Counted from the first letter of the stretch, positions 13,916 through 48,874 are shown. The stretch: DNA of 64,000 bases from Verrucomicrobiaceae bacterium (GCA_028293825.1 JAQGNY010000010.1:237151-301150); one strand, 5' to 3'. A program made the numbers and translations. Notes: generated by a model not told the origin, from the letters alone.

Positions 13916-14911
13916 TTAGATAACGGTAAATAATTTGCCGCGCACCGATTCGCGGTAATCGCGCGGGGTCTGCTTCATCGCTTCACGAAACAGTCGCGAA
14001 AAATAATCGCTGTCGCTGTAGCCCGCCGTCATTGCCACTTCAGCAATACTGAGATTGGTGGTGCGCAATAAATCGCGGGCATTGTGCAAACGTTGCTGCA
14101 ACAAATAGCTGTTGGGGCTCATCCCTGTCGCGCTTTTAAAGCGTCGATTTAGCGAGCGCAAACTCAATCCCAATTGTTTTGCCAGTTCCGGCATATGCAG
14201 TGTTTCGGCGCAGTTGGTGCGCAGATAATCCTGCACCTGCACGATTACTTCGTCGCTGTGTACGTCAGCGCGACCGGCACTGTAAGCATGGCTGGCGAAG
14301 GGCTGGCGGATTTCCGGTGAAAACTGTGCTTCCACTTTGCGCGCCAGTTCGCGTCCGTATAACAGCTCGATAAAGTGGATCGTTAAATCGGCCACCGAAT
14401 TTACCGATCCCGCGCAATAGATATTGCCCGCTTCGGTAATTAGATGATGGCGCTGCAACAGCACGCGCGGATAACGCTGCGCGAACGAGTCGAAATAAAA
14501 CCAATGCGTTGTGGCCGGTTTATCGTCGAGCAGACCTGCTTCCGCTAATAGAAAGCTGCCGGTACCGACGGCGCATAGCAGGGTTTTCTCCAGCGCCAAG
14601 CGTTGCAGCCACGGCAAAATATTGCGGTGATTGCGCAGTGCCGTGCGCGGGTTGCGCCACAGCGCGGGAATGATCAGCAAATCGGTATTTTGAACTGCAT
14701 CGATGTCGCCGCTGAGCTTCAGTGTTAGGCCGTTCGCCGTTTTGATTTCAGCACCGCCCGGGCCTACAAAACGGTGCGTCAGGGACGAATATTTTTTGTC
14801 TGTGTGGCGATCAATGCGCGCCAGTTGATCGGCGGCCGTGAGCATTTCCATCGGCAGCGACAGGCTGGAAGGGAGCGCTTCGGGCAGTACGAGCAGAGTT
14901 ATGTCCGGCAT
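13916..14911 (-). CDS. GlxA-type AraC-family regulator (DJ-1/PfpI-like domain + AraC HTH)
   Basis: N-terminal class-I glutamine amidotransferase-like fold (LLIIPALW, LLCAVGTGSFLLAEAGLL) and C-terminal AraC HTH (IAEVAMTAGYSDSDYFSRLFREAMKQTPRDYR). ATG 14911 is preferred over TTG 14965. Confidence 0.85.
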   Translation of the reverse strand: MPDITLLVLPEALPSSLSLPMEMLTAADQLARIDRHTDKKYSSLTHRFVGPGGAEIKTANGLTLKLSGDIDAVQNTDLLIIPALWRNPRTALRNHRNILPWLQRLALEKTLLCAVGTGSFLLAEAGLLDDKPATTHWFYFDSFAQRYPRVLLQRHHLITEAGNIYCAGSVNSVADLTIHFIELLYGRELARKVEAQFSPEIRQPFASHAYSAGRADVHSDEVIVQVQDYLRTNCAETLHMPELAKQLGLSLRSLNRRFKSATGMSPNSYLLQQRLHNARDLLRTTNLSIAEVAMTAGYSDSDYFSRLFREAMKQTPRDYRESVRGKLFTVI

Positions 14912-15042
14912 TGGCGTGAAAAACCAGTTTAGTGGCTGTTTTGTCCAGTATATCGGCGGGGTCAAACATTACAATGCGGCAACAGAATTATGTCAGCTCG
15001 AGTGTTCCGCTCGGCAAAACTCTTCCCAGATAAGGATTTACG

Positions 15043-16908
15043 ATGGCCAGGCTTCCTCTTATCGTCGGGTTTGGCGGCATCAACGCCGCCGGTCGCAGCT
15101 CATTCCACCACGGTTACCGGCGCATGATTTTCGATGCGTTGGATGCAGCCAAGTCGGCCAGCACCTTGCAAAGCTTATCTGCGTTGATGCGTCTGCCCGC
15201 CGAGCAAACCATGAGCGCCGAGCGCAAGCGCTTTATTCTCGACCATACCTTGATTCGCCGCATCGAAAACGATTGGTTCGACCCGGAGCGCGCGCCGCTC
15301 AATCGCCGCATTCCGATTGAAGCCAGCGACAAACCCGTGTCTCTCGTCACTAAAGCGCGCAATTTGCCACCGATTCTGCCACCGAATTGGACCGTAACCG
15401 ATTTGGACGGACGCAATGTGCGCGTCGATATCAGTGGCGATACCGAGTTTCTGTTGCCCGATACCGAGGCGATGAGCGTGCAAGCGGCCGGGCAGCTCCC
15501 AACGGGGTTCGATCCTGCCGCACTGTACCAATCGCGCAATCACCCGCGCGGCTTGCAGCTCTCGGTATTTGCAGCGTCGGATGCGTTGGGTTCGATGGGG
15601 ATCGACTGGCAAACCGTTTGTAGTCGCGTGGCGCCGGATCAAATCAGTTGTTATGCCGGCAATGCGTTGGGGCAGTGCGATGAAAATGGCAATGGCGGCA
15701 TGCTCGGCGCCCGTTATCGCGGCCGGCGCGTGACATCGAAGCAACTGCCGTTCGGCTTGCTGGAGATGCCGGCCGATTTCGTCAACGCCTACGTGCTCGG
15801 CAATATCGGTAATACCGGCGGCAATGCCGGTGCTTGCGCGACTTTTCTGTACAGCTTGCGGCAGGGGCTGGACGACATTAGCGCTGGTCGCGCCCGCGTG
15901 GTGGTTATTGGGTCCAGCGAAGCGCCGATCCTGCCGGACGTCATCGAAGGCTTTGCCGCGATGGGTGCGCTCGCGCAGGACAAAGATTTGCTCGCGCTCG
16001 ACGCAGACAAAGGCCTCACCCAACCGGATTGGCGTCGCGCGGCACGGCCGTTCAGCACCAACTGCGGCTTTACGATTGCTGAGGGCGCGCAATACATCGT
16101 GCTGATGGACGATGAGCTGGCGCTGGAATTAGGCGCGACCGTCTACGGCGCGGTCACTGATGTATTTATTAATGCCGACGGGCATAAGAAATCGATTTCC
16201 GGCCCTGGCGCAGGCAATTACTTAACAGTCGCCAAATCGTGTGCGTTGGTACGCACCCTTCTCGGTGAAGAATCGCTGCGGCAGCGTTCGTTCATCCAGG
16301 CACACGGCACCAGTACGCCGCAGAACCGCATATCGGAATCGCATATTTTCAACGAAGTCGCCAAGCTGTTCGGAATTCAGCAGTGGCCGGTAGCGGCGAT
16401 CAAAGCCTTCATCGGACACACGTTAGGCCCAGCATCCGGCGATCAGCTGGCGGCCACACTGGGTGTATGGAATGGCGGTTTGATCCCCGGTATCAAAACC
16501 ATCGATCACATCGCCAACGATGTGCATTGCAGCAACCTGAGCATCAGCAGTGAGCACACCGAAGTGGGGGTCGAAGGTATCGACAGCGCCATTCTCAATG
16601 CTAAAGGCTTCGGCGGTAACAATGCGTCGGCACCGATTTTCGCGCCGCATATCGCGCTGAAAATGCTGACCAAACGCCACGGCGAGAAAGCGATGAGAGC
16701 TTGGCGCGAGCGTAATGAGCAAGTGCGCGAGCAAGCGGCGCAATACGATGCGGTGGCATCGAGCGGCGACTTAAAGTCGATTTACAAATTCGACCACAAC
16801 GTGCTCGGCGGCGGCGATCTCGATTTATCCAAGCACGCGATTGCGGTACCGGGATTCGGGCAGCCGGTCGATTTGGATTTCGACACGCCATTTCGCGACT
16901 GGATCTGA
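15043..16908 (+). CDS. fabY: FabY-type beta-ketoacyl-ACP synthase (KASI/II-domain condensing enzyme, about 620 aa)
   Basis: MARLPLIVGFGGINAAGRSSFHHGYRRM, SAGQLPTGFDP, GACATFLYSL (Cys), AHGTSTPQNR and FIGHTLGPASG (His/His), and NAKGFGGNNAS are collinear with P. aeruginosa PA5174 as I recall it. Confidence 0.8.
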   Translation: MARLPLIVGFGGINAAGRSSFHHGYRRMIFDALDAAKSASTLQSLSALMRLPAEQTMSAERKRFILDHTLIRRIENDWFDPERAPLNRRIPIEASDKPVSLVTKARNLPPILPPNWTVTDLDGRNVRVDISGDTEFLLPDTEAMSVQAAGQLPTGFDPAALYQSRNHPRGLQLSVFAASDALGSMGIDWQTVCSRVAPDQISCYAGNALGQCDENGNGGMLGARYRGRRVTSKQLPFGLLEMPADFVNAYVLGNIGNTGGNAGACATFLYSLRQGLDDISAGRARVVVIGSSEAPILPDVIEGFAAMGALAQDKDLLALDADKGLTQPDWRRAARPFSTNCGFTIAEGAQYIVLMDDELALELGATVYGAVTDVFINADGHKKSISGPGAGNYLTVAKSCALVRTLLGEESLRQRSFIQAHGTSTPQNRISESHIFNEVAKLFGIQQWPVAAIKAFIGHTLGPASGDQLAATLGVWNGGLIPGIKTIDHIANDVHCSNLSISSEHTEVGVEGIDSAILNAKGFGGNNASAPIFAPHIALKMLTKRHGEKAMRAWRERNEQVREQAAQYDAVASSGDLKSIYKFDHNVLGGGDLDLSKHAIAVPGFGQPVDLDFDTPFRDWI

Positions 16909-16953
16909 TTTCGCTGGCTATACTTGGGTGTCGGTCAACGGAGGGCGAGCACC

Positions 16954-17388
16954 ATGCGCAAATTCGTCCGTCATCCCAGTTCGATTCCCATCGAGCTGTC
17001 TGTAGCGCGCGCAGCTATTCCCCGCGCGCGCTGTCGCAATATCAGCAACGGCGGTTTTGCCTGCACGGTCGACGAACCGCTGCCGGTGGGAAGTTCGGTG
17101 TGTTTGCGAATTCCCGTGATCTGGCCCGAGTATCGCGGCAACGGCGTCGTTGCCTGGTGCCAGCAAGTAACGCCTGCCTATGAGATCGGCATTCAATTTG
17201 TCGCGCAGGATTTATTTAAAACCAAGATGGTCGAGCAGCTGTGCCAGATCGAACAATACCGTATTCAATTGCAGTTAAACGAAGGGCGCACGCTAAGTAG
17301 TCAAGCGGCAGCGGAAGAATGGATTGCGTTGTACGCGAAAGATTTTTCCGATTCGTTTCTGGGTTCGGATGAAAGCGCTGGCAATTAA
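16954..17388 (+). CDS. PilZ-domain protein (putative c-di-GMP receptor)
   Basis: RKFVR (RxxxR) at the N-terminus and NISNGG (D/NxSxxG) about 30 residues later. GGAGGG RBS upstream of ATG 16954. Confidence 0.8.
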   Translation: MRKFVRHPSSIPIELSVARAAIPRARCRNISNGGFACTVDEPLPVGSSVCLRIPVIWPEYRGNGVVAWCQQVTPAYEIGIQFVAQDLFKTKMVEQLCQIEQYRIQLQLNEGRTLSSQAAAEEWIALYAKDFSDSFLGSDESAGN

Positions 17389-17412: not shown

Positions 17413-18666
17413 TTAATCGAGCGTTAAGCCTTTTTCCACATACGTCTCAACGCGCACGCCATGCGCCCCGTTCGGCAATACGTTTTTAATTAATTGCTCC
17501 GCCGCACCAGCCGCCGCTGTTTTTTCCAAATTCAAAATACGTTCCGGCATCGGTTGTTTAGCGCTGTCGCGTAACAGCATCACTTTCGGTAAATGGCGAT
17601 GGCGATGATTGGTGCTGATAACGATCCCGACTTCGCCGCTGTGTAATTCCACTACGCTGCCGGGCGGATACAGGCCGATGCAATCGATAAATTGCTGGCC
17701 CAATTTCGGATCGAATTTTTTGCCGGCTTCGTCGTGAATAATGCGCAATGCATTTAGCGACGACGCGCCTTTTTTATAAATACGATCGCTGGTAATCGCA
17801 TCATAAACATCGCACAGCGTAATGATGCGCGTGAAATCGGTAATATTGCCGGCTTTAATTTTGCGTGGATAACCGCTGCCATCCAAATTTTCATGATGGC
17901 TATACGCCACGTCGATGGCGCCATGATAAATATTGCGATGCGCGAGCAAAATATCGCGGCCTTGTTGCGCATGCTTCTGCATGATTTGAAATTCGTCTTC
18001 ATTCAGCCGCGTTTCTTTCAATAAAATTTCGAGTGGCGTTTGCATCTTGCCGATGTCGTGCAGCATGCCGGCTACGCCGAGTTTATTTAAATCCTCCTCG
18101 CTCGCGCCCAAATGACGACCAAACGCAATCGCTAATAACCCTACATTTAAACTGTGCTCGGATGTGTATTCATCCTTAGAGCGCAGCTTTGCCATCCACA
18201 ACATGGCGTCCGGGTTGCGCAAAATACTACGCACGCATTCCGAAACCGTCGCTTTTACTTCTTTAATATCGATGCCGCGCCCGAGCCGCACTTCATCCAT
18301 AAACGAGCGTGTTAACGCACGGGCATTTTGATGGGTGCTTTGCGCGGTGATCATTTCTTTCGCGCGCGGCGTGGTCGTGTTGTATTTATTGATGCGTTGC
18401 GACAGCGTTTCTTTTACCGCGCGTTCTTCGGCGGGCTGCCAGGTGTCTTCGCCGAGTTCGATATACACACTCTGGCAATATTTCGCTATTTCCTCGATAT
18501 CGGCGAGGCTGCGGATATGAAATCCCTGCAGAATAAACGGCGTTTCCAGCCACGGCCGATCCAGCTCGCTGACATACATGCCGACCTTCAAACCGGCGAC
18601 GGCAATTTGCATCACCCGTTTTTCTTTCAGGGTGCGGCCGGGGCGAACTACGGTTTTTTTATCCAT
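17413..18666 (-). CDS. HD-GYP domain c-di-GMP phosphodiesterase with DUF3391-like N-terminus
   Basis: LKVGMYVSELDRPW N-terminal domain, HDIGK and HHENLDGSGYP motifs. The start is uncertain (ATG 18666 or TTG 18696). Confidence 0.88.
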   Translation of the reverse strand: MDKKTVVRPGRTLKEKRVMQIAVAGLKVGMYVSELDRPWLETPFILQGFHIRSLADIEEIAKYCQSVYIELGEDTWQPAEERAVKETLSQRINKYNTTTPRAKEMITAQSTHQNARALTRSFMDEVRLGRGIDIKEVKATVSECVRSILRNPDAMLWMAKLRSKDEYTSEHSLNVGLLAIAFGRHLGASEEDLNKLGVAGMLHDIGKMQTPLEILLKETRLNEDEFQIMQKHAQQGRDILLAHRNIYHGAIDVAYSHHENLDGSGYPRKIKAGNITDFTRIITLCDVYDAITSDRIYKKGASSLNALRIIHDEAGKKFDPKLGQQFIDCIGLYPPGSVVELHSGEVGIVISTNHRHRHLPKVMLLRDSAKQPMPERILNLEKTAAAGAAEQLIKNVLPNGAHGVRVETYVEKGLTLD

Positions 18667-18818
18667 GCGGTTCGAATCTAATCGGTCGATGAGCAAATAT
18701 TGGCGCTTTAGTGTTCAGTGTAGGAGAGCAATGAGTTTTTGCATCCCCTGCATAAGGTGGCAGTTGTTAGCAGACTGGTAGAATTAAAAACAATTGATGA
18801 GGCCGGATAATAAAATAG

Positions 18819-20538: not shown

Positions 20539-23500
20539 TCAGCCATTTTTATTTACTGACGCGGTGCGATCGAGTTTGCCCCAGCCGACCGCAGAGCCAT
20601 GCAGCGCGCTCAATACCGATTTCACAATCACGTAATACATGATTTGCCGATAGCCGAAGCGTTGTTGGATTAACCACCACAGCAATTTCCAATCTTCTTT
20701 TTTCTCCAGCGCAAATGCGAGCACACCGGCGCTGACATCGACCAAAGTAAACAAGGCGTAATACGCGCAGGTGATGGTGAGGTTGGTCGTATCGGCCTGG
20801 TTCTTATGCTGCACATAATCGATAACGGCGCTGATGATTTGCCACACCAGTGCGAGATCGACCAGCGGTGAAATCAATCCGAAAATAATTTGAAACAACC
20901 ACACCTGCGGCAATGCCACTAAACCGAGCATGCCGTAGCGCGCGCGAAAAACCACATCGCGGTATTTCCATAAACATTGCAGCGTGCCGAAGCTCCAGCG
21001 AAAGCGCTGCTTGGCCAGGCCTGCAAATGTTTCCGGCGCTTCCGTCCACGCAATGGCCTGATCGTCATAAATAACGCGATAACCTGCGGTTTGAATGCGC
21101 AGCGTTAAATCCTGATCTTCCGCCAGCGTATGTGTAGGAAAACCGCCGACTAAATCCAACGCTTCGCGACGCCATGCGCCGACTGCGCCCGGAACCACGG
21201 TGATGCTATTAATGGCCGCGAGCGCGCGGCGTTCGAGATTTTGCGCCGTGATGTATTCGAGCGCCTGCCAGCGCGTAACGGTATTAATACGGTTGCCGAC
21301 TTTGGCATTGCCGGCGACAGCGCCAACGCGTGCGTCGTCGAACCAGCGCACGAGTTTTGCAATGCAATCGGGCTCGAACTGGGTGTCCGCATCGAGTGCC
21401 ACCACAATCGCACCGGTGGCGAGTTGTAATCCCGCATTGATCGCGCGCGCCTTGCCGCTGTTTTGCAGCGTCAGTAATTGCACGCGTGGATCGTTGCCGA
21501 AAGATTCGCGCACCACAGCGGAAGTGTTATCGCTGGAGCCGTCGTCGATAACGATGACTTCGAGATTGCGATAATCAGATTGCAAAATGTGTTCGATCGA
21601 AGTCGCGATCACTTTGCTTTCGTTAAAGGCCGGAATTAAAACCGATACGCGCGCGGTGCTTTGCGCTGTTGTGGCAAAACTTTCATTGCGACGTTGGCGC
21701 GTGCGTTGCCACAAACCGAGCCCGCATAAAATAATCAGTCGCAAAAATCCCAGGCCGATAGCGAACATAAACAACCAATACAGCGCGTGATTGGCCCATC
21801 CGGTGATGTAAAAAACAATGCGGTCGGCAGTTTGGCCGAACGGCTGACGTTTCACCTTGGGCATCGCCTGCTCGTGGGTGAGGCCGGCCAATTGCGACAC
21901 GGGCACCAACTCGTAACCCTTCGCGCGGATGGCGTCGATCAACACCGGCAATGCTTCAACGGTGTTGGCACGATCGCCGCCGGCGTCGTGCAGTAATACG
22001 ATTTGGCCGCGCGTTTCCGGGTTTGGATCGCTGATTTGCGCCAGCGTGCGCTCGATAATCGTAGCGGCGGGTGGACGTTGCCAATCGTCGGGATCGACGC
22101 GCAAACCGACGGTGATGTAACCCATGTTTTGCGCGTGCTCGACTGGTATCAATTCGTCCGATGTGGTCGGTTCCGCATCGCCGAAATAGGGCGGGCGAAA
22201 AAATCGAATCGAGTGCCCGGTGATGGCTTCGAATAAACGCTGCGTGGCGTTCAATTCGATTGCAGTTAATTCACGCGGACTTTCGCCGAGGTTCGGATGC
22301 GTGAACGTGTGATTACCGACATCGTGGCCTTCATCGAAAATTCGCTGTACCAATTGCGGATTCGCCTGGCCGTTTTCGCCGATGATGAAAAAGCTCGCGT
22401 GTACTTTTTTCTGTTTCAAAATATCGAGAATTTTCGGCGTCCAGGTCGCGTCGGGGCCGTCGTCGAACGTCAATGCAATTTTGCCGGGCAGCGCGCCGAG
22501 ACGGCGAATCACATAGCTCGATGGCAGTGCCACGTAATTTTGTTCGTCGATTAAGCCGCTGTCTTCGTCCGTACCGAAAGTGCGCGCGCCGGCGCTTGGC
22601 AACGCCGCGATGCGCAGAATTTCACCGGTGCCTTCCATGTCGATATCGCTACCCATCGCGATTTGTTGCAGCGCTGCTGGCGCCGGAGCGTCGTAAGGTT
22701 GCCCCAATACCGAAGCAATCGACGGATCTTCCGAGCCCAAACGCCACAGCGCATAACCTGCTGGGCGATAGGTATCGGCGATATGAATTTGATTGAACGC
22801 GGTGACACCATCGAGCAGCCACACCTGATGCACGCTACCGTCGTCTTCTTCGTACGAGTAACGCGGATTCTGCGTAACCGGATCGAACTCGATGGTCGCC
22901 TCCGATTCGCGCGCGGTTAATACCGCTTCCTGAAACGTAATATCTTCCGCGGTTTTTCCCTGCGCCCAGTCGTAACCGTAATTGCCGATACAAATAATCG
23001 TGTGTTGCGGATCGAGCGTGCGCATGCGGCGGTGCAGCACTTTTTTAAACCAATCCTGCGATGCGATGCTGCCGGGCGTGCCTTCTTCCCAGTGCTCGTC
23101 ATACGCCATCAACATGATGTAATCGGTGGTCGCGGTGTACGCGGTGTAATCCCATTCGGCATCGTCGAACGGCGCCGCAATCGCCAGCGTCCAATGATGC
23201 GCGGCAAAACGATTTTTTATTTCGGCGAGAAACGTCAGAAAGTTTTTGTGCGCGGCCGGCGGCACATTTTCAAAATCCAACACCAATCCCTGAAATTGAT
23301 TGTCAGTGAGAAATTTTTCAATTTGCTGCAAACGCGCGGCGCGCAATTGCGGATCGGCAACCAAGCGCGCCAATGCAGCGCCATCCCAATTGCCGTCGCT
23401 GGCGTTTTGCCACATCGGCAAAATCGACGTGTTCGGCTTAGTGCGGCGAATTAAATCCAGCGCGCGTCGATCGATATCGAACTGCAGCGTTAGGTTTGGT

Positions 23501-23955
23501 TCGAGCGAATTAATCCAACCCGGCACCACCCAATCCAGCTGCGGCAACATGCGTTTCAACGACGGGTAACTGCTGTCGTCCCAGTTCACATAGAAGCCAA
23601 TTGCCAGCGGCTTACTGGTCGTGGCCGCGCTCGCGGCAATCGGCGCGGCGGCTTGCGTGATCGGCATTATTTCCGGGCGCGACGAACGCGGTACTCCGCG
23701 CTGATGGGTTTTCACACGCTTGGCGAGTTCGGAAATTTTTTGCAGCGAATGCGCCTGAATGGCTTTCTCGAACGGGATCGCATGTAGTTTTTTATCGCCG
23801 GCAATAATTAATGGCGCCAGCGATTGCACCGACAAAATAGTGGTGACGAAGGCAAACACTACGACCGTGGTGACGATGGCGAAAAACCAAGCCAGCCGCG
23901 ACATGCCGCGCGCGCGTTTACCGGAAGGATCAAAAAAAACGGATTTCTCAAGCAT
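20539..23955 (-). CDS. Fusion protein: TM anchor + GH18-like domain + CE4 (NodB) polysaccharide deacetylase + processive family-2 glycosyltransferase (PgaC/IcaA-like)
   Basis: A single uninterrupted frame (GTG 24003 or ATG 23955). GH18-like: FYVNWDD, LVLDFENV, MLMAYDEHW. CE4: TFDDGPD, HTFTHP, RPPYF, LLHD. GT2: DDGSSD, DADT, AEDQD, QRFRW. TM segments lie at the N-terminus, between CE4 and GT2, and at the C-terminus. Confidence 0.85.
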   Translation of the reverse strand: MLEKSVFFDPSGKRARGMSRLAWFFAIVTTVVVFAFVTTILSVQSLAPLIIAGDKKLHAIPFEKAIQAHSLQKISELAKRVKTHQRGVPRSSRPEIMPITQAAAPIAASAATTSKPLAIGFYVNWDDSSYPSLKRMLPQLDWVVPGWINSLEPNLTLQFDIDRRALDLIRRTKPNTSILPMWQNASDGNWDGAALARLVADPQLRAARLQQIEKFLTDNQFQGLVLDFENVPPAAHKNFLTFLAEIKNRFAAHHWTLAIAAPFDDAEWDYTAYTATTDYIMLMAYDEHWEEGTPGSIASQDWFKKVLHRRMRTLDPQHTIICIGNYGYDWAQGKTAEDITFQEAVLTARESEATIEFDPVTQNPRYSYEEDDGSVHQVWLLDGVTAFNQIHIADTYRPAGYALWRLGSEDPSIASVLGQPYDAPAPAALQQIAMGSDIDMEGTGEILRIAALPSAGARTFGTDEDSGLIDEQNYVALPSSYVIRRLGALPGKIALTFDDGPDATWTPKILDILKQKKVHASFFIIGENGQANPQLVQRIFDEGHDVGNHTFTHPNLGESPRELTAIELNATQRLFEAITGHSIRFFRPPYFGDAEPTTSDELIPVEHAQNMGYITVGLRVDPDDWQRPPAATIIERTLAQISDPNPETRGQIVLLHDAGGDRANTVEALPVLIDAIRAKGYELVPVSQLAGLTHEQAMPKVKRQPFGQTADRIVFYITGWANHALYWLFMFAIGLGFLRLIILCGLGLWQRTRQRRNESFATTAQSTARVSVLIPAFNESKVIATSIEHILQSDYRNLEVIVIDDGSSDNTSAVVRESFGNDPRVQLLTLQNSGKARAINAGLQLATGAIVVALDADTQFEPDCIAKLVRWFDDARVGAVAGNAKVGNRINTVTRWQALEYITAQNLERRALAAINSITVVPGAVGAWRREALDLVGGFPTHTLAEDQDLTLRIQTAGYRVIYDDQAIAWTEAPETFAGLAKQRFRWSFGTLQCLWKYRDVVFRARYGMLGLVALPQVWLFQIIFGLISPLVDLALVWQIISAVIDYVQHKNQADTTNLTITCAYYALFTLVDVSAGVLAFALEKKEDWKLLWWLIQQRFGYRQIMYYVIVKSVLSALHGSAVGWGKLDRTASVNKNG

Positions 23956-24205
23956 ATAAACGGCAATCAATTCTTGAGTGACGGTGAAGGAAATAACTGT
24001 CACCGCAGCGGCACCGCTAGGTCGCGGCGGGGCGCGTGGGCATAAAGCTTAATTGAGGCGCGGAAGTTTACGGGAAAGATTGCGCCTGTAGCCAGAATTA
24101 TGGGACAGGCTGCCTGACAATTCGATTAGTTGGCGGTCAACAATTGCACCCTAGTACGTTGTTGCGCGGCATAAATCGATACTTTGTACTGACTGTTTTT
24201 TGAAA

Positions 24206-43672: not shown

Positions 43673-43896
43673 AACGCTTTAATTGAATTGCGTTGTTTCT
43701 ATTTTGAACAATTAAACCTTTATCGCGCGATTTACACCTATGCGTTTGAAAATACTCGAATCCACATCCATACTCACTTCAGTTTTTCGTATTGCACTCC
43801 TGCTTTGATTTTACTTTTTGCTATCTCCCCATCAGTGACGGTCGGGTTTGTTATTCGGGATTAATGTTGTTCTCGCCGTAACTCGAAGGCCTTTAT

Positions 43897-46293
43897 TTGC
43901 CCGCTTTTATTTCACGCCAGCGGCTCACTTCGCTTCTGATTCCGGTGTTGGTGTTGTCGGTTTTAATTTACGAAGTGCTGCACACGCCGATTTATACCGA
44001 AGGCGAACTCAGTGCTATGCGCGAGAAAGCGGTTGCACTCGCCACGTCGGGCGAATTCGATTCGGCACTGGAGCAATTGCGCGCGCTGTCCGAAGTGGCG
44101 CCCGACAATCGCGGCGTGTGGGGTGATTATTTATCCGTGTTGGTACGTGCGCAGCGCGAGCGCGAGGCATTAGTTTTATTCGCTGCTAATTCGCAGCGCG
44201 CATTACCCGATTACACGTTGGCCGATTTATTTGCCGCCGCATTGAGGCAAAAAGATTTCGCGCTCGCGCGACAGCTGGCTGATCGTGAAATTGCGCAAAG
44301 TGCCGAGCCGCAAAAAATTACCGAGGCGCGCGCCGATGCATTGGCCGCCGCTGGATTTGCTACAGCGCCATCGACGACTTTTGCCACGGCCACTGAATTT
44401 GCCGAACCTGAAGCAGCTCTTGAATCACAACCAGCCGTCGAATCGAAATCGGCCGCCGAATCTGCGGTTGGGGTGGCGGCGCCAGTAAGAGCTGCGCCCC
44501 GGTTGCATCGGTCGTCCGCGGCGCCATCGACACGACCTGCGCGATTCTCGAATCAATCAGCAGTAATACCAGCGTCCGCGCCGCGTGCTGCCGTAACCGA
44601 TACCGCTGCCGAGTTCGGTGAGCGTGCCGGTCTTGCCGTCCGCGAAGCCGAAGATGCGCCGGCCAGCGAGCGGGTCGTGCGCGCGCAAATGGCCCTCGCA
44701 GCGCTCGATCAATACGCTCAAGCGCTTGCGGACAATTACGGCTCGGCAGCACAAATCCGCAACGAACAACTCGACCGCGTGCGCGCACTGACGCTGGCCG
44801 GCCGCCTCGATGAAGCCGCCACCGTATTCGAAACGTTGGGCGATACGGACCAGTTGCCGATTTATGGCTTGTTGAACGGCGCCGACCTTTATGTGCGTCG
44901 CCAGCAACCGGCGCGCGCGCAGGCGTTGCTCGATATCGCATTGAGGCGAGAGCCAAACAATCGCAACGCGTTGGTGGCAAGCTTTCGCAATCAGCTGGAC
45001 GGCGAACATTATCGCGCTGCCGCAACGACGCTAGGGCAATTGCGAGACACGGCGACTACATCTGCCGATCGGCGCAACAGCCGCTTGCTGACCGCGCAAC
45101 TCGCCGCATACACCGATCATTTGCAAGCCGCGCAGACCGAACTGGAAGCGTTGCGTAGCGAGGAGCCCGATGCTGCCGATGTGCATCTACGGTTGGCGCA
45201 AATTTATCGCTGGCGTGGCTGGCCCCGCCAGGCGCTCGACGAATACCGCCATGCTGAAAATTTGTCTGCCGATCCGGCCTCCACGCAGTTCGGCGAAATC
45301 GCCGCGCTCAACGATGCGCACGAGTATGCGGCAGCGCGTGCACGACTCGATTCGGCGGCAACGCATTCGCCTAATCATCCCGATTTAAAGGCCGCGCTAA
45401 TAGAGCGACGCCAACAGCAGCAGTGGCAGTACAGCGCGCAGGTTCAAGCCGGCAAATCGGATGCGAGCCCAGTTACCGGCACCGGCGATCTCGCCTTTGA
45501 TCAGCGGCTTACATCGCCAGTTTTGAACGATCAATTTCGCGTATTCGCACATCAGCATTACGACTGGGCCAAGTTTCCCGAAGGCAATGGCAGCGCTGAT
45601 CGATTCGGACTTGGCGCTGATTATCGTTCGGCGCAATTCGATACCGCTGTCGAGCTGACGCGCCGAGCGCCCGGCAGTGAAACGGGTGGTTCGCTCAGCG
45701 GCGAATGGCACGCGAATGATCGACTGAGCGTGTTCGGCGAAGCGCAAATCGATTCCTCTGCCGTGCCGTTGCGAGCATTGAATGCCGGTATCGACGGGGA
45801 TTCGGCGACTGTCGGCGCGCGCTATCGCGTCGACGAAAACCGCCAGGCGCAGATTGCGTATTCGCGGGCCGAATTCAGCGACGACAACAATCGCGATGCC
45901 GTCAGCGCCAGTTACAAACAAACCTTATTGCGCGAAGGTCGCCAGCAAATCGGCGTGATCGGCCAGCTCTATTACGGGCGCAATTCGGCCGGCGACAACG
46001 TGCCGTATTTCAATCCGGCGCGCGAAACCGCCGCCACCGCCAATCTCGAATATTCAGGCCCGCTGTGGCAGCGCGAAACGACGTTCTGGTCGCAGCGCGT
46101 ATCGGTCGGCGCTGGTGTGTACGACCAACAGAATTACGGCAGTCATCCGATTTGGGATGTGGAATACGAGCAGCGTTGGCGCTTCAGTCCGGCCTTCGAA
46201 ATCAACTACGGCCTGCTGCATCGCAGTCGCGTTTACGACGGGGGACGCGAAGGTTACAGCGCGTTGTTCGGCGGCGTGAATCGGCGCTTTTAG
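43897..46293 (+). CDS. pgaA: PgaA-like poly-beta-1,6-N-acetylglucosamine export porin (TPR periplasmic domain + C-terminal beta-barrel)
   Basis: 798 aa with a hydrophobic N-terminal signal-like segment, TPR-like helices, alternating beta-strand pattern and a terminal Phe (...GGVNRRF). Lies immediately upstream of pgaC. The TTG start is uncertain. Confidence 0.78.
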   Translation: MPAFISRQRLTSLLIPVLVLSVLIYEVLHTPIYTEGELSAMREKAVALATSGEFDSALEQLRALSEVAPDNRGVWGDYLSVLVRAQREREALVLFAANSQRALPDYTLADLFAAALRQKDFALARQLADREIAQSAEPQKITEARADALAAAGFATAPSTTFATATEFAEPEAALESQPAVESKSAAESAVGVAAPVRAAPRLHRSSAAPSTRPARFSNQSAVIPASAPRAAVTDTAAEFGERAGLAVREAEDAPASERVVRAQMALAALDQYAQALADNYGSAAQIRNEQLDRVRALTLAGRLDEAATVFETLGDTDQLPIYGLLNGADLYVRRQQPARAQALLDIALRREPNNRNALVASFRNQLDGEHYRAAATTLGQLRDTATTSADRRNSRLLTAQLAAYTDHLQAAQTELEALRSEEPDAADVHLRLAQIYRWRGWPRQALDEYRHAENLSADPASTQFGEIAALNDAHEYAAARARLDSAATHSPNHPDLKAALIERRQQQQWQYSAQVQAGKSDASPVTGTGDLAFDQRLTSPVLNDQFRVFAHQHYDWAKFPEGNGSADRFGLGADYRSAQFDTAVELTRRAPGSETGGSLSGEWHANDRLSVFGEAQIDSSAVPLRALNAGIDGDSATVGARYRVDENRQAQIAYSRAEFSDDNNRDAVSASYKQTLLREGRQQIGVIGQLYYGRNSAGDNVPYFNPARETAATANLEYSGPLWQRETTFWSQRVSVGAGVYDQQNYGSHPIWDVEYEQRWRFSPAFEINYGLLHRSRVYDGGREGYSALFGGVNRRF

Positions 46294-46302
46294 CGGAGTG
46301 GA

Positions 46303-47580
46303 ATGATCGACATGCCTTTTCAATCGACCATCGATAGCCTGCTCGCTTTCGCCTATTACTATCCATTGTTCATGTCCTACGTGTGGATGTGTGGCGGCCT
46401 GTACTACCGTTTTCACTGGGAACGTGGCGACCGCAGCACGCCGCCGGCGCTGAAAAATTATCCGGGCGTTTCGGTGCTGGTGCCGTGTTTCAACGAGGCC
46501 GAGCAAATCGAGGAAACGCTGCGCTATCTGGCGCTGCTCGATTATCCGAATGTCGAAATCATCTGCATCAACGACGGCAGCCGCGACAATACCGGCGCGA
46601 TTCTGGATGCGCAAAGCACGGTGTATTCGAATTTGCGCGTCGTCCATCTCGCCACCAATAGCGGTAAAGCGAAGGCGCTGAATGTCGGTGCGCTGCTGGC
46701 GAAAAACGAAATTCTGGTGTGTATCGACAGCGATGCGGTGCTCGATCCGAGCGCCGTCATATGGTTGATTTCGCACTTCGAGAACTCGCCGCGTCTGGGC
46801 GCTGTTACCGGCAACCCGCGCATCCGCAATCGCTCGACGTTGCTCGGCAAAATTCAGGTCGGCGAGTTTTCCTCGATCATCGGTTTGATCAAGCGCGCGC
46901 AGCGCATTTACGGCCGCATCTTTACCGTGTCGGGTGTTGTCGTGGCGTTTCGTCGCGCCGCGTTGCAGCGCATTGGTTTCTGGCATTCGAATACCGTCAC
47001 CGATGACATCGACGTGAGTTGGCGCCTGCAGCTCGATCATTGGGATGTGCGGTACGAGCCCAACGCGCTGTGCTGGATTTTGATGCCGGAAACCTATACC
47101 GGTCTGTGGCGCCAACGCCTGCGTTGGGCGCGCGGTGGCGCGGAAGCGGCGTTGCGCTATGCCGGCGTGATGGCGCAGTGGCGCTCGCGGCGGATGTGGC
47201 TGGTGTTTATCGAATACTGGCTGAGCGTGGTGTGGAGTTATGTACTCGCGGCGATCGTGATTCTGTGGTTGCTCGGCAAATTCGTGACGCTGCCGGAGGC
47301 CCTGCACGTGCCCACTATCGTGCCGGGCTGGCACGGCGTGGTGCTCGCATCGACCTGCTTGCTGCAATTTTTTGTCAGCCTGGTGATCGACGGTCGCTAC
47401 GAGCCACGATTGCTGCGTAATTTCTTTTGGATGATCTGGTATCCGCTCGCGTACTGGCTGATCACGGTATTCACCACCGTGGTGGCGGTGCCGCGCACCA
47501 TCTTCAATCGCAAGCACGTCGGCACCTGGGTCAGCCCGGACCGTGGTGTGCGCGCGGCGCCGGTAGAGGCGAGCAAATGA
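46303..47580 (+). CDS. pgaC: Poly-beta-1,6-N-acetyl-D-glucosamine synthase PgaC (GT2)
   Basis: Near-collinear with E. coli PgaC: VLVPCFNE, NDGSRDNT, CIDSDA, GAVTGNPRIRNRSTLLGKIQVGEFSSIIGLIKRAQRIYG, TDDIDVSW, QRLRWARGG, WVSPDRG. GGAG RBS. Confidence 0.96.
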   Translation: MIDMPFQSTIDSLLAFAYYYPLFMSYVWMCGGLYYRFHWERGDRSTPPALKNYPGVSVLVPCFNEAEQIEETLRYLALLDYPNVEIICINDGSRDNTGAILDAQSTVYSNLRVVHLATNSGKAKALNVGALLAKNEILVCIDSDAVLDPSAVIWLISHFENSPRLGAVTGNPRIRNRSTLLGKIQVGEFSSIIGLIKRAQRIYGRIFTVSGVVVAFRRAALQRIGFWHSNTVTDDIDVSWRLQLDHWDVRYEPNALCWILMPETYTGLWRQRLRWARGGAEAALRYAGVMAQWRSRRMWLVFIEYWLSVVWSYVLAAIVILWLLGKFVTLPEALHVPTIVPGWHGVVLASTCLLQFFVSLVIDGRYEPRLLRNFFWMIWYPLAYWLITVFTTVVAVPRTIFNRKHVGTWVSPDRGVRAAPVEASK

Positions 47581-48032
47581 AATTCAGTGCCGAAGCATTA
47601 ATCATCAATCGGCCCGATTTGGTGCCGTCGGGACAGAAATTTACCGCGTGGGGCATCACGTTATTTTTCTGGGGCGCGCTGCTTTATTTGTGGCAGCCGT
47701 TGCTGAGCATCATCGCCTGGGGCCTGAATATTCATTTGTTTTACAACCACATGATTTTGCTCGGCGGCTACCGGACATTTTTAAGCCTGCTGGCGACTTA
47801 TCTCGAAATCATCGCGATGCTCGGCGGCGGTCTGATTTTTTGGGCGCGCACCAACCAATGGCGTTTTCGCGGGAAGGATCGGCGTCAAGGTCGCGGCGAT
47901 ACCGATGTCGCGCGCATGCGTGAAGAATTTGGCGTTTCTGCCGAGGCCTTCGAACAGGCACTGCAAAGTGCCATTGTTACCGTCAATTTTTCGGCGAATG
48001 GTGAAATCAATAAAATCGAGTGCCGTCAATAA
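47577..48032 (+). CDS. pgaD: PgaD-like small inner-membrane subunit of the PNAG synthase
   Basis: 151 aa with two TM helices then a cytoplasmic tail. The ATG overlaps the pgaC stop (ATGA) as in pgaCD operons. Sequence similarity to E. coli PgaD is architectural only. Confidence 0.72.
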   Translation: MKFSAEALIINRPDLVPSGQKFTAWGITLFFWGALLYLWQPLLSIIAWGLNIHLFYNHMILLGGYRTFLSLLATYLEIIAMLGGGLIFWARTNQWRFRGKDRRQGRGDTDVARMREEFGVSAEAFEQALQSAIVTVNFSANGEINKIECRQ

Positions 48033-48156
48033 TGTGTCGATGCGATTTACAGTGCCGTATCTGATTGATTTTGAAAAAATACCCAACTCCATGACACAGC
48101 ATGATTTTGTGAAATGGGTCTCACTTTTGCTTAGGTATGGCGAGTCTTAACTTTCT

Positions 48157-48807
48157 ATGGAATATCCAATGCTGCGTTTCGTATCTGCTCTGCTGTTGTT
48201 GTCCGCCTCTGCATTTGCGCCGGCTTATTCGGTATCTATCGAGCAAACCGTCGATAGTCGCGACAACCTGTACTACACCGATTGGGGTCATTGGTTTACG
48301 ACCGCAGCCGACAACGCGTTGGGCAATCCCGATTCGAACCCGGCCAGTTCGGTCGCGCAGAACGGCACGCCATTCAACTTTGCCGACTTCACCACACTCA
48401 GCATCAATGCGTCGGGCTCGGTGATCGACCATTTCGGCACGGCGACGGGACCGGATGGCGACACCTGCACGCCGAACTGCCTGTTCAACGATGGCTACTT
48501 CCGCAAATTGCCGGCGTATTCGCTGATCGGTATTTGGAGCAGCTCGGCCACTGAAATCGTTCCATTCGGCGACTGGAAAGATCTCACCAGCGGTTTAGGT
48601 TTGTTATTTATCGGCAGCCATTTAGACCTGACTATTCCCAGTTTCCCGTCGGCGTATTTGTTCCTCGCTGAAAACGACGGTGGCTTTGCCGATAACTTCG
48701 GTAAATACACTGTACAATTGGTGGCGAGTGTTCCAGAGCCGGGTTCGCTGGCATTGCTGGTCGTTGGTTTTGCGATGTTGATCGTGACGCGTCGCCGCGT
48801 TAAATAA
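48157..48807 (+). CDS. Secreted PEP-CTERM sorting-domain protein (possible lectin-like beta-sandwich)
   Basis: Signal peptide LLLLSASAFAPAYS and C-terminal VPEPGSLALLVVGFAMLIVTRRRVK, which is PEP + TM + basic tail. Confidence 0.85.
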   Translation: MEYPMLRFVSALLLLSASAFAPAYSVSIEQTVDSRDNLYYTDWGHWFTTAADNALGNPDSNPASSVAQNGTPFNFADFTTLSINASGSVIDHFGTATGPDGDTCTPNCLFNDGYFRKLPAYSLIGIWSSSATEIVPFGDWKDLTSGLGLLFIGSHLDLTIPSFPSAYLFLAENDGGFADNFGKYTVQLVASVPEPGSLALLVVGFAMLIVTRRRVK

Positions 48808-48844: not shown

Positions 48845-48874
48845 AAAAAAAAGCCGCCGCGAGGCGGCTTTTTT
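48845..48874. terminator. Bidirectional rho-independent terminator
   Basis: A-run, stem AGCCGCC/GGCGGCT with loop GCGA, then a T-run. It overlaps the stop of the convergent LysR gene. Confidence 0.8.

Follow-up and report, generated by a model that had tools for sequence, protein, structure and literature searches.

We describe an exopolysaccharide locus in a 64,000-nucleotide stretch of DNA deposited under the name Verrucomicrobiaceae bacterium (GCA_028293825.1 JAQGNY010000010.1:237151-301150), hereafter the window. We take its source to be a soil gammaproteobacterium. Positions 43897-48807 hold the genes pgaA, pgaC and pgaD, adjacent and in that order, followed by a fourth gene that we call X. 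We read this segment as a synthase-dependent exopolysaccharide operon of four genes, a lineage-specific form of pgaABCD that would work without PgaB, exporting its polymer in acetylated form with X as a polymer-binding lectin, and we regard this interpretation as evenly poised between right and wrong. In pga systems, PgaC and PgaD make and translocate a polymer of beta-1,6-linked N-acetylglucosamine (GlcNAc), and PgaA exports it. All four genes lie on the plus strand. The pgaA gene (43897-46293; 798 aa), with a TTG start preceded by GAAGG, encodes the outer-membrane export porin for poly-N-acetylglucosamine (PNAG), while pgaC (46303-47580; 425 aa) encodes the poly-beta-1,6-GlcNAc synthase of glycosyltransferase family 2 (GT2), and pgaD (47577-48032; 151 aa) its small inner-membrane partner with two predicted hydrophobic segments. 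Gene X (48157-48807) is a 216-aa open reading frame (ORF) located 124 nt past pgaD, for which the gene call gives 212 aa and a start at 48169. The TAG stop codon of pgaA (46291-46293) is separated from the ATG of pgaC at 46303 by the 9-nt gap CGGAGTGGA, which contains GGAG, and the ATG of pgaD at 47577 overlaps the end of pgaC at 47580 in the sequence ATGA. The initial annotation of this DNA had described exactly these ORFs and junctions; it was correct in assigning pgaA, pgaC and pgaD to one operon, but it overlooked X as a fourth conserved gene.

The identities of the three pga proteins are well supported by profile searches and structure prediction. PgaC scores 588.5 bits against TIGR03937 (cut-off 422.3), is collinear with E. 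coli PgaC at 48% identity over 413 aa, as had been claimed, and keeps all of the GT2 motifs NDGS, IDSDA, TDDID and QRLRW. PgaD matches both TIGR03940 (93.4 bits; cut-off 31.45) and PF13994 (99.3 bits). PgaA scores 203.7 bits against PF21197 (PgaA_barrel); its alignment with TIGR03939 spans the full length and reaches 362.1 bits, 4.5 bits short of the 366.65 cut-off. The concern raised in the initial annotation, namely that a hidden Markov model (HMM) search might show the barrel protein not to be a PgaA homologue, was not borne out. The AlphaFold2 (AF2) model of PgaA, computed from a 24-sequence alignment, has a mean predicted local distance difference test (pLDDT) score of 84.9 and a 16-strand barrel, and its top Foldseek match in the PDB is the E. 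coli PgaA barrel 4y25, with a template modelling (TM) score of 0.91 and a root-mean-square deviation of 2.0 A. From its N-terminus the protein comprises a hydrophobic segment, a helical module resembling tetratricopeptide repeats (TPR; aa 35-151), a linker (aa 156-233), a porin-proximal TPR region (aa 236-507), and the beta-barrel domain of 16 strands (aa 511-797; 45427-46287), the last being delimited by Pfam, AF2 and Foldseek. The linker, lying between the N-terminal TPR module and the porin-proximal TPR, consists of 78 residues rich in Ala, Ser, Pro and Thr (44362-44595); it is predicted with pLDDT values of 24-35, hence below 50, lacks secondary structure, and is unconserved in the clade consensus. 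The Ala/Ser/Pro-rich insert reported earlier in the periplasmic part of the porin is thus real. We also considered whether a hidden extra domain in PgaA, PgaC or PgaD might substitute for PgaB, and rejected this idea: in PgaA, Pfam and AF2 reveal nothing beyond TPR, linker and barrel, and the extra sequence of long PgaA variants (1318-1338 aa) in related loci consists of more TPRs only.

PgaA, PgaC and PgaD are thus all recognised in the window, and a PgaB is missing from its place between pgaA and pgaC. A tblastn search of the 64-kb window with E. coli PgaB gives no match at E<0.01. We built a PgaB profile HMM from 11 sequences (that of E. coli and 10 from the collected loci) and used it to scan every ORF of 60 aa or more, in all six frames, from the window and each fetched locus; it recovers PgaB in the ten pgaB-containing loci with 817-1156 bits and gives no match at E<=1e-3 in the 64-kb window or in any pgaB-less related locus. 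Given these empty searches and the 9-nt gap between pgaA and pgaC, the earlier statement that pgaB has neither space nor a remnant here stands. The sole domain of carbohydrate esterase family 4 (CE4) in the 64 kb belongs to a fusion of GH18-like, CE4 and GT2 domains at 20539-24003, and there is no CE4 gene within 8-10 kb of the other pgaB-less loci.

The initial annotation had suggested a survey of pgaACD versus pgaABCD arrangements in related genomes. A PgaA-based scan with one genome per species yielded 25 loci, in which both arrangements occur and the pgaB-less order is conserved. The PgaA homologues that are 44-52% identical to that of the window come from Spongiibacteraceae-type metagenome-assembled genomes (MAGs); those inspected share the order lactamase_B, VanZ, FMN_red, pgaA, pgaC, pgaD, X, LysR (on the minus strand) and leuCD, with 31 nt between pgaA and pgaC. 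Fifteen distinct loci that carry X, drawn from four or more genomic neighbourhoods, have contiguous pgaA and pgaC genes without pgaB (gaps of 9-45 nt), and in these loci, from Spongiibacteraceae and allies, PgaA is 32-52% and PgaC 66-82% identical to the window proteins. Among the 25 scanned loci this contiguity is seen in the Spongiibacteraceae group, in L011, in seven Wenzhouxiangella loci, and in L017, with a 16-nt overlap between its predicted pgaA and pgaC ORFs. The pgaB-less Wenzhouxiangella include the cultured isolates W. sediminis XDB06, EGI_FJ10409 and EGI_FJ10305. In 8 of the 25 scanned loci a PgaB about 41% identical to that of E. coli is encoded between pgaA and pgaC, the position that pgaB occupies in all 10 pgaB-containing loci surveyed.

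A neighbour-joining tree of PgaC (416 columns, 300 bootstraps) places the pgaB-less, X-bearing loci in a monophyletic group (100% bootstrap). The pgaB-less Wenzhouxiangella form a second group (100%) that is sister to a pgaB-containing Wenzhouxiangella locus (99%) within a clade of pgaB-containing operons (100%). Because the pgaB-less Wenzhouxiangella clade is nested among operons with pgaB, the tree indicates that pgaB has been lost at least twice, and this independent loss in Wenzhouxiangella indicates that more than one lineage can do without PgaB. Nei-Gojobori estimates for pairs within both pgaB-less lineages give ratios of non-synonymous to synonymous substitution rates (dN/dS) below 1 for every gene (pgaC, 0.03-0.16; pgaA, 0.11-0.37; pgaD, 0.04-0.62; X, 0.09-0.27). 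Some pairs are saturated at synonymous sites; L009/L010, L012/L013 and L021/L027 are not. Since the ratios stay below 1 in these unsaturated pairs too, they argue strongly against a decaying remnant. With reading frames intact across at least 15 distinct pgaB-less loci, the comparative evidence indicates that the pgaB-less operon is a conserved state under purifying selection, and not the product of decay or accident.

Among the pgaB-less operons PgaA varies considerably in length, being about 600 aa, with the N-terminal TPR module gone, in Wenzhouxiangella (L012-L014, L018, L021 and L027), about 800 aa in the window's clade, where it carries the disordered linker, and 1,318-1,338 aa with added TPRs in L011, L030 and L031; split PgaA matches in L046 suggest a PgaA of the ~1,320-aa type there as well. 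The pgaB-less locus in L015 (7681-11659) is rearranged to pgaC-pgaD-pgaA, and its PgaA barrel is the most basic of the set (crude net charge of +14). Three MAGs labelled 'uncultured Verrucomicrobiaceae bacterium' (L006, L009 and L010) carry the pga locus in gammaproteobacterial, Spongiibacteraceae-like synteny, and their labels are probably wrong.

The fourth gene encodes a protein with hydrophobic segments at both ends, an N-terminal signal-like segment and the C-terminal PEP-CTERM sequence VPEPGSLALLVVGFAMLIVTRRRVK, which scores 20.8 bits against PF07589 (cut-off 20.7) and 22.5 bits against TIGR02595 (cut-off 16). The family is of modest size, an exhaustive search finding 61 representative clusters of X homologues at E<=1e-30 and 143 at E<=1e-10. 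An alignment of 40 members shows the invariant motifs DNLY..W, Y..IG.WS and YLFLAENDG.F.DN, including the invariant residues N169, D170, D175 and N176, which align with the ND...DN loop of PllA. When the X profile is compared with PDB sequences, the best matches are PllA (5odu; E 0.0055) and lectins of the PA-IL/LecA type, by way of this C-terminal ND...DN strand-loop; in that match, a sequence-level alignment, the loop of X is about 2 residues shorter than that of PllA. The AF2 model of X (pLDDT 89.3; predicted TM score 0.83) leads to the same proteins. Its top nine Foldseek matches in the PDB are all LecA or EclA/PllA-like (6ygq), with probability 1.00, E-values of 2.6e-4 to 1.3e-3 and TM-scores of 0.58-0.76, those to LecA itself (2vxj, 4cp9 and 1l7l) having E-values of 2.6e-4 to 4.6e-4 and TM-scores of 0.71-0.76. 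Thus the predicted beta-sandwich of X is best matched by P. aeruginosa LecA (PA-IL), Photorhabdus PllA and EclA's N-terminal domain. Sequence identity to LecA-type lectins is only 11-16%, however, X being some 50 residues longer with a shorter metal/sugar loop, and whereas LecA is a soluble tetramer, X has a Sec signal and a PEP-CTERM anchor. Since it lacks Pfam PA-IL membership, we describe X as a LecA-like beta-sandwich with an exosortase anchor and putative ligand binding, and do not count it among the LecA family.

X follows pgaD directly in every member of the clade whose contig extends that far, including three neighbourhoods in which PgaA is of the ~1,320-aa kind (L011, L030 and L031). 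Scanning metagenomes with the X alignment produced 52 further loci; after pooling and de-duplication at 95% there were 53 distinct X loci, 32 of them informative. In 20 of these 32, X is pga-linked. Contiguous pgaA and pgaC genes without pgaB accompany it in 15, and in 3 others it is pga-linked on a contig that is cut upstream, and these are counted neither with nor without pgaB. X is a concrete candidate for the 'different partner' of PgaA that the initial annotation had offered as one explanation for the missing pgaB.

How such an operon might function can be outlined from family knowledge and from mutants lacking the deacetylase. PgaC and PgaD would polymerise UDP-GlcNAc into beta-1,6-GlcNAc and move the chain across the inner membrane, after which the TPR region of PgaA would take it up and the barrel export it. 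Because the operon brings no periplasmic CE4/GH153 enzyme, the polymer would presumably leave largely or fully N-acetylated, as in the Bordetella bronchiseptica bpsB deletion, in which acetylated PNAG is exported and shed according to PMC10269871 (citing Little et al. 2015). That deletion indicates that a PgaA-type porin can pass acetylated polymer, and that retention then becomes the problem. Loss of cell-associated polymer is the common phenotype of deacetylase mutants (PMC6307706). X, sorted to the cell surface by an exosortase, may act as a surface lectin on the polymer, or on some other matrix or cell glycan, and so keep uncharged polymer attached to the cell, providing the retention or cross-linking that positive charge gives elsewhere. 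Acetylated-polymer export is compatible with all of the data and has experimental precedent. The full version of this proposal, in which PgaA exports fully N-acetylated PNAG and an operon-encoded, exosortase-sorted, LecA-like lectin replaces charge-based retention to give a protein-tethered matrix, is tentative and, in our judgement, rather doubtful. The PgaB deacetylase domain docks on residues 221-515 of E. coli PgaA, whose residues 220-367 bind PNAG and deacetylated PNAG (dPNAG) (PMC9384988). The porin-proximal TPR is kept in all pgaB-less PgaA proteins, even the 600-aa Wenzhouxiangella form still having about 306 periplasmic residues, and its retention fits a polymer-binding role. The dPNAG-binding tryptophans W314 and W318 (PMC9384988) are unconserved even in relatives that have pgaB and are uninformative in this regard.

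Several observations weigh against PgaB-independent export with X as the tether. Inactive PgaB mutants of E. coli and HmsF mutants of Y. pestis export no PNAG (PMC10269871). The PgaA barrels of pgaB-less, X-bearing loci are acidic like that of E. coli (mean net charge of -9.3 versus -11) and more acidic than those of related pgaB-containing loci, the charge being a crude count of D/E versus K/R over the whole barrel, lumen-facing residues and others taken together. Barrel charge was accordingly discarded as a signature of neutral cargo, given that the count shows the opposite trend and no sign of adaptation. Outside the PEP-CTERM region, Pfam detects nothing in the body of X even at E<=10, and no PA-IL match. 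There is no exosortase among the scanned ORFs of the 64-kb window, and the searches for PgaB, CE4 and exosortase genes in the window's genome cover 64 kb of a 448-kb contig. With respect to expression, the window sequence occurs in one soil-metagenome DNA run and in no RNA run. The genomic contexts of X are also mixed: pga genes are not adjacent in 12 of the 32 informative loci, and in 2 of the 32 X accompanies an operon that includes pgaB, the order being pgaA-pgaB-pgaC-pgaD-X in L043 (1493-8570) and X-pgaA-pgaB-pgaC-pgaD in L062 (6630-13457). The Wenzhouxiangella pgaB-less operons, moreover, lack X. Because L043 and L062 carry both genes and Wenzhouxiangella neither, X is neither necessary nor specific for life without PgaB, and a strict form of the idea that X replaces PgaB is weakened. 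Its gene neighbourhoods identify X as an accessory gene associated with pga operons, the majority of which, though not all, lack pgaB.

The acidity of the pgaB-less, X-bearing barrels, which equals that of E. coli and is as expected for a cationic cargo, leads us to keep deacetylation in trans as a serious, if rather unlikely, rival. An unlinked periplasmic CE4 enzyme (the fusion in the window, some other CE4 in relatives) would then act on the polymer, and PgaA would export partly deacetylated PNAG; the retention of the TPR part that docks PgaB in E. coli is consistent with this. The initial annotation had named as trans-deacetylase the GH18-like + CE4 + GT2 fusion (20539-24003, minus strand; ORF of 1154 aa, gene call of 1138 aa). 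Its domains are as stated there, and the description of the GH18-like (aa 136-423) and CE4 (aa 508-706) portions as periplasm-facing is reasonable, since by hydropathy they lie between predicted transmembrane segments at aa 33-69 and 739-766, followed by a cytoplasmic GT2 domain (aa 785-1010) and further transmembrane segments. The CE4 domain is NodB/PdaB-like and scores well against such deacetylases, but the PgaB profile does not detect it at E<=1e-3; the GT2 domain is closest to PgaC/IcaA, yet far below the cut-off (201.6 versus 422.3 bits). The role is thus topologically possible; as a general answer it is unsupported. The fusion is one of a widespread family whose more than 2,100 proteins share its ~1,140-aa architecture; those of Rhodanobacter, Dyella, Frateuria, Kaistia and Hyphomicrobium are 57-60% identical, and the Rhodanobacter homologue is a stand-alone gene with no pga neighbour. 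A close metagenomic relative has the same local context as the fusion in the window. The fusion lies within a stretch of about 22 kb that is absent from the syntenic region of L002, where an acyltransferase is followed by CrcB and then lactamase_B, and none of the best 120 of the more than 2,100 family matches comes from the 3.54-Mb contig of L002. Moreover, each fusion contains its own synthase, so that its CE4 domain most simply serves its own product, and no CE4 is linked to any pgaB-less locus. We therefore reject the fusion as a conserved trans partner of pgaACD; it is probably an independent, self-contained synthase/deacetylase, apart from the conserved pgaACD-X module, and its moonlighting for pgaACD in the window's genome alone is possible.

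We think it improbable that a canonical two-domain pgaB (CE4 + GH153) resides elsewhere on the chromosome, so that gene order alone is unusual. The window is a 64-kb part of its 448-kb contig, and operon splitting does occur, as L015 illustrates; but the surveyed pgaB-containing loci place pgaB between pgaA and pgaC without exception, none is found within 8-10 kb of the pgaB-less loci, and the same clean excision would have to have taken place in two independent lineages. A functionless remnant after the loss of pgaB, which is how the Shigella flexneri case has been read (PMC7112194), would agree with the export block caused by loss of PgaB function in E. coli. We consider this explanation very improbable in view of the intact frames and sequence conservation across at least 15 distinct loci, the dN/dS values, which lie well under 1 for each gene of both lineages without pgaB, and the translational coupling that is kept in the 9-nt gap and the ATGA overlap. 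It is also unlikely, to much the same degree as an unlinked pgaB, that the product is not classical PNAG or that X is unrelated to the polymer, being, for example, a merely co-located adhesin for foreign glycans. LecA-family lectins bind galactosides, not GlcNAc, PgaA falls just under the TIGR03939 cut-off, and X homologues do occur away from pga genes. PgaC, however, passes its equivalog model by a wide margin, and X is linked to three kinds of pga operon (without pgaB, pgaABCD-X and X-pgaABCD) in different neighbourhoods.

There is weak evidence that pgaA-pgaC-pgaD-X may form a single transcription unit, because in a consensus scan the pgaD-X interval shows no terminator-like site, a terminator-like hairpin stands after X, and a promoter-like match precedes pgaA. 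The hairpin (48856-48868; GC-rich, GCCGC-GAG-GCGGC) is flanked by T-runs on both strands and lies between X and the convergent LysR gene, and the sigma-70-like promoter match TTGAAA-17-CATACT (43746-43774, plus strand) lies inside the 224-nt gap before pgaA. The promoter-like match is the only one in the region, although shuffled sequence yields more, which makes it weak evidence. Further upstream, an HD-GYP-type cyclic di-GMP phosphodiesterase gene (17413-18696, minus strand; DUF3391 + HD_5) and a small ORF (16924-17388) with a weak PilZ-like/TIGR02266 match are conserved, and in L002 they are located just 4-6 kb upstream of pgaA; on this circumstantial ground the pair may provide a cyclic di-GMP input to PgaCD, cyclic di-GMP being the activator of synthesis in pga-type systems. 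The 621-aa protein encoded at 15043-16908 has weak matches to the N- and C-terminal domains of beta-ketoacyl synthases and adjoins a divergent AraC/DJ-1 regulator gene (13916-14965, minus strand), a pair that is also kept in L002. The ~22-kb segment absent from L002 synteny (19488-42022) contains genes for an NmrA-like protein, the fusion, an amine oxidase, a TetR regulator, two SDRs, a luciferase-like monooxygenase, SnoaL, pstSCAB-phoU and MOSC, together with several ORFs without a Pfam match. GC content is 0.46-0.49 at 26-36 kb versus about 0.53 elsewhere, and the segment looks like a variable or acquired one. In the GH18-like domain of the fusion the canonical DxxDxDxE motif reads QGLVLDFE, which retains the final Asp and the catalytic Glu but not the first two Asp; the domain may be an active hydrolase or a binding module. 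Horizontal spread of the fusion is suggested by its high identity (57-60% over ~1,140 aa) between Gamma- and Alphaproteobacteria.

Compared with E. coli pgaABCD (hmsHFRS in Y. pestis), the window operon has the same gene order minus one gene, with PgaC collinear, PgaD translationally coupled, and PgaA likewise composed of TPR and a 16-strand barrel that superposes on 4y25. It differs in that the TPR region of PgaA is broken by the 78-residue disordered linker, in that a lectin-like gene follows pgaD, and in having no PgaB (CE4 de-N-acetylase + GH153 hydrolase), a lipoprotein on which export in E. coli and Y. pestis depends. The bpsB deletion in the B. bronchiseptica bpsABCD system is a functional precedent for acetylated export without the deacetylase (PMC10269871); there, however, the PgaB-less state is a laboratory mutant with shed polymer and immature biofilm, whereas here it is natural, conserved and selected. 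In the staphylococcal icaADBC system, icaB mutants, with deacetylation lost, make an uncharged PNAG that the cell fails to retain (PMC6307706, Table 1), which shows that deacetylation buys retention, not synthesis; that system is Gram-positive and has no outer-membrane porin, PgaD homologue or lectin gene. A 2020 survey by Bundalovic-Torma et al. (PMC7112194) described loss of pgaB in Shigella, which it took as a loss of function, a single environmental arrangement missing both pgaB and pgaD, and GT-CE4 fusions that come without pgaA or pgaD; neither a conserved pgaA-pgaC-pgaD operon nor a lectin partner features in it. The fusion in the window likewise combines a PgaC-like GT2 with an IcaB/NodB-like CE4 and has no adjacent pgaA or pgaD, but it differs from those of the survey in its additional GH18-like domain and in being a single stand-alone gene. 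In our text searches of the literature, no account of a conserved pgaACD operon lacking pgaB came up.

PgaB is treated as essential for PNAG export in Gram-negative bacteria and as a drug target. To our knowledge, the only contrary evidence so far is one laboratory deletion in Bordetella. Two independent environmental lineages that keep pgaA, pgaC and pgaD under selection with no linked pgaB thus offer a natural test of PgaB-free PNAG export, and cultured Wenzhouxiangella (W. sediminis XDB06 and two isolates) make this core question directly testable. The system bears on whether the benefit of deacetylation and hydrolysis lies in export, retention or periplasmic housekeeping, on which features of PgaA determine the passage of acetylated polymer, and on what the 'PgaB-docking' TPR does where there is no PgaB. 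If the proposed role of X is true, X would be the first partner protein that a pga operon encodes beyond PgaA-D, and it would link exosortase sorting to PNAG.

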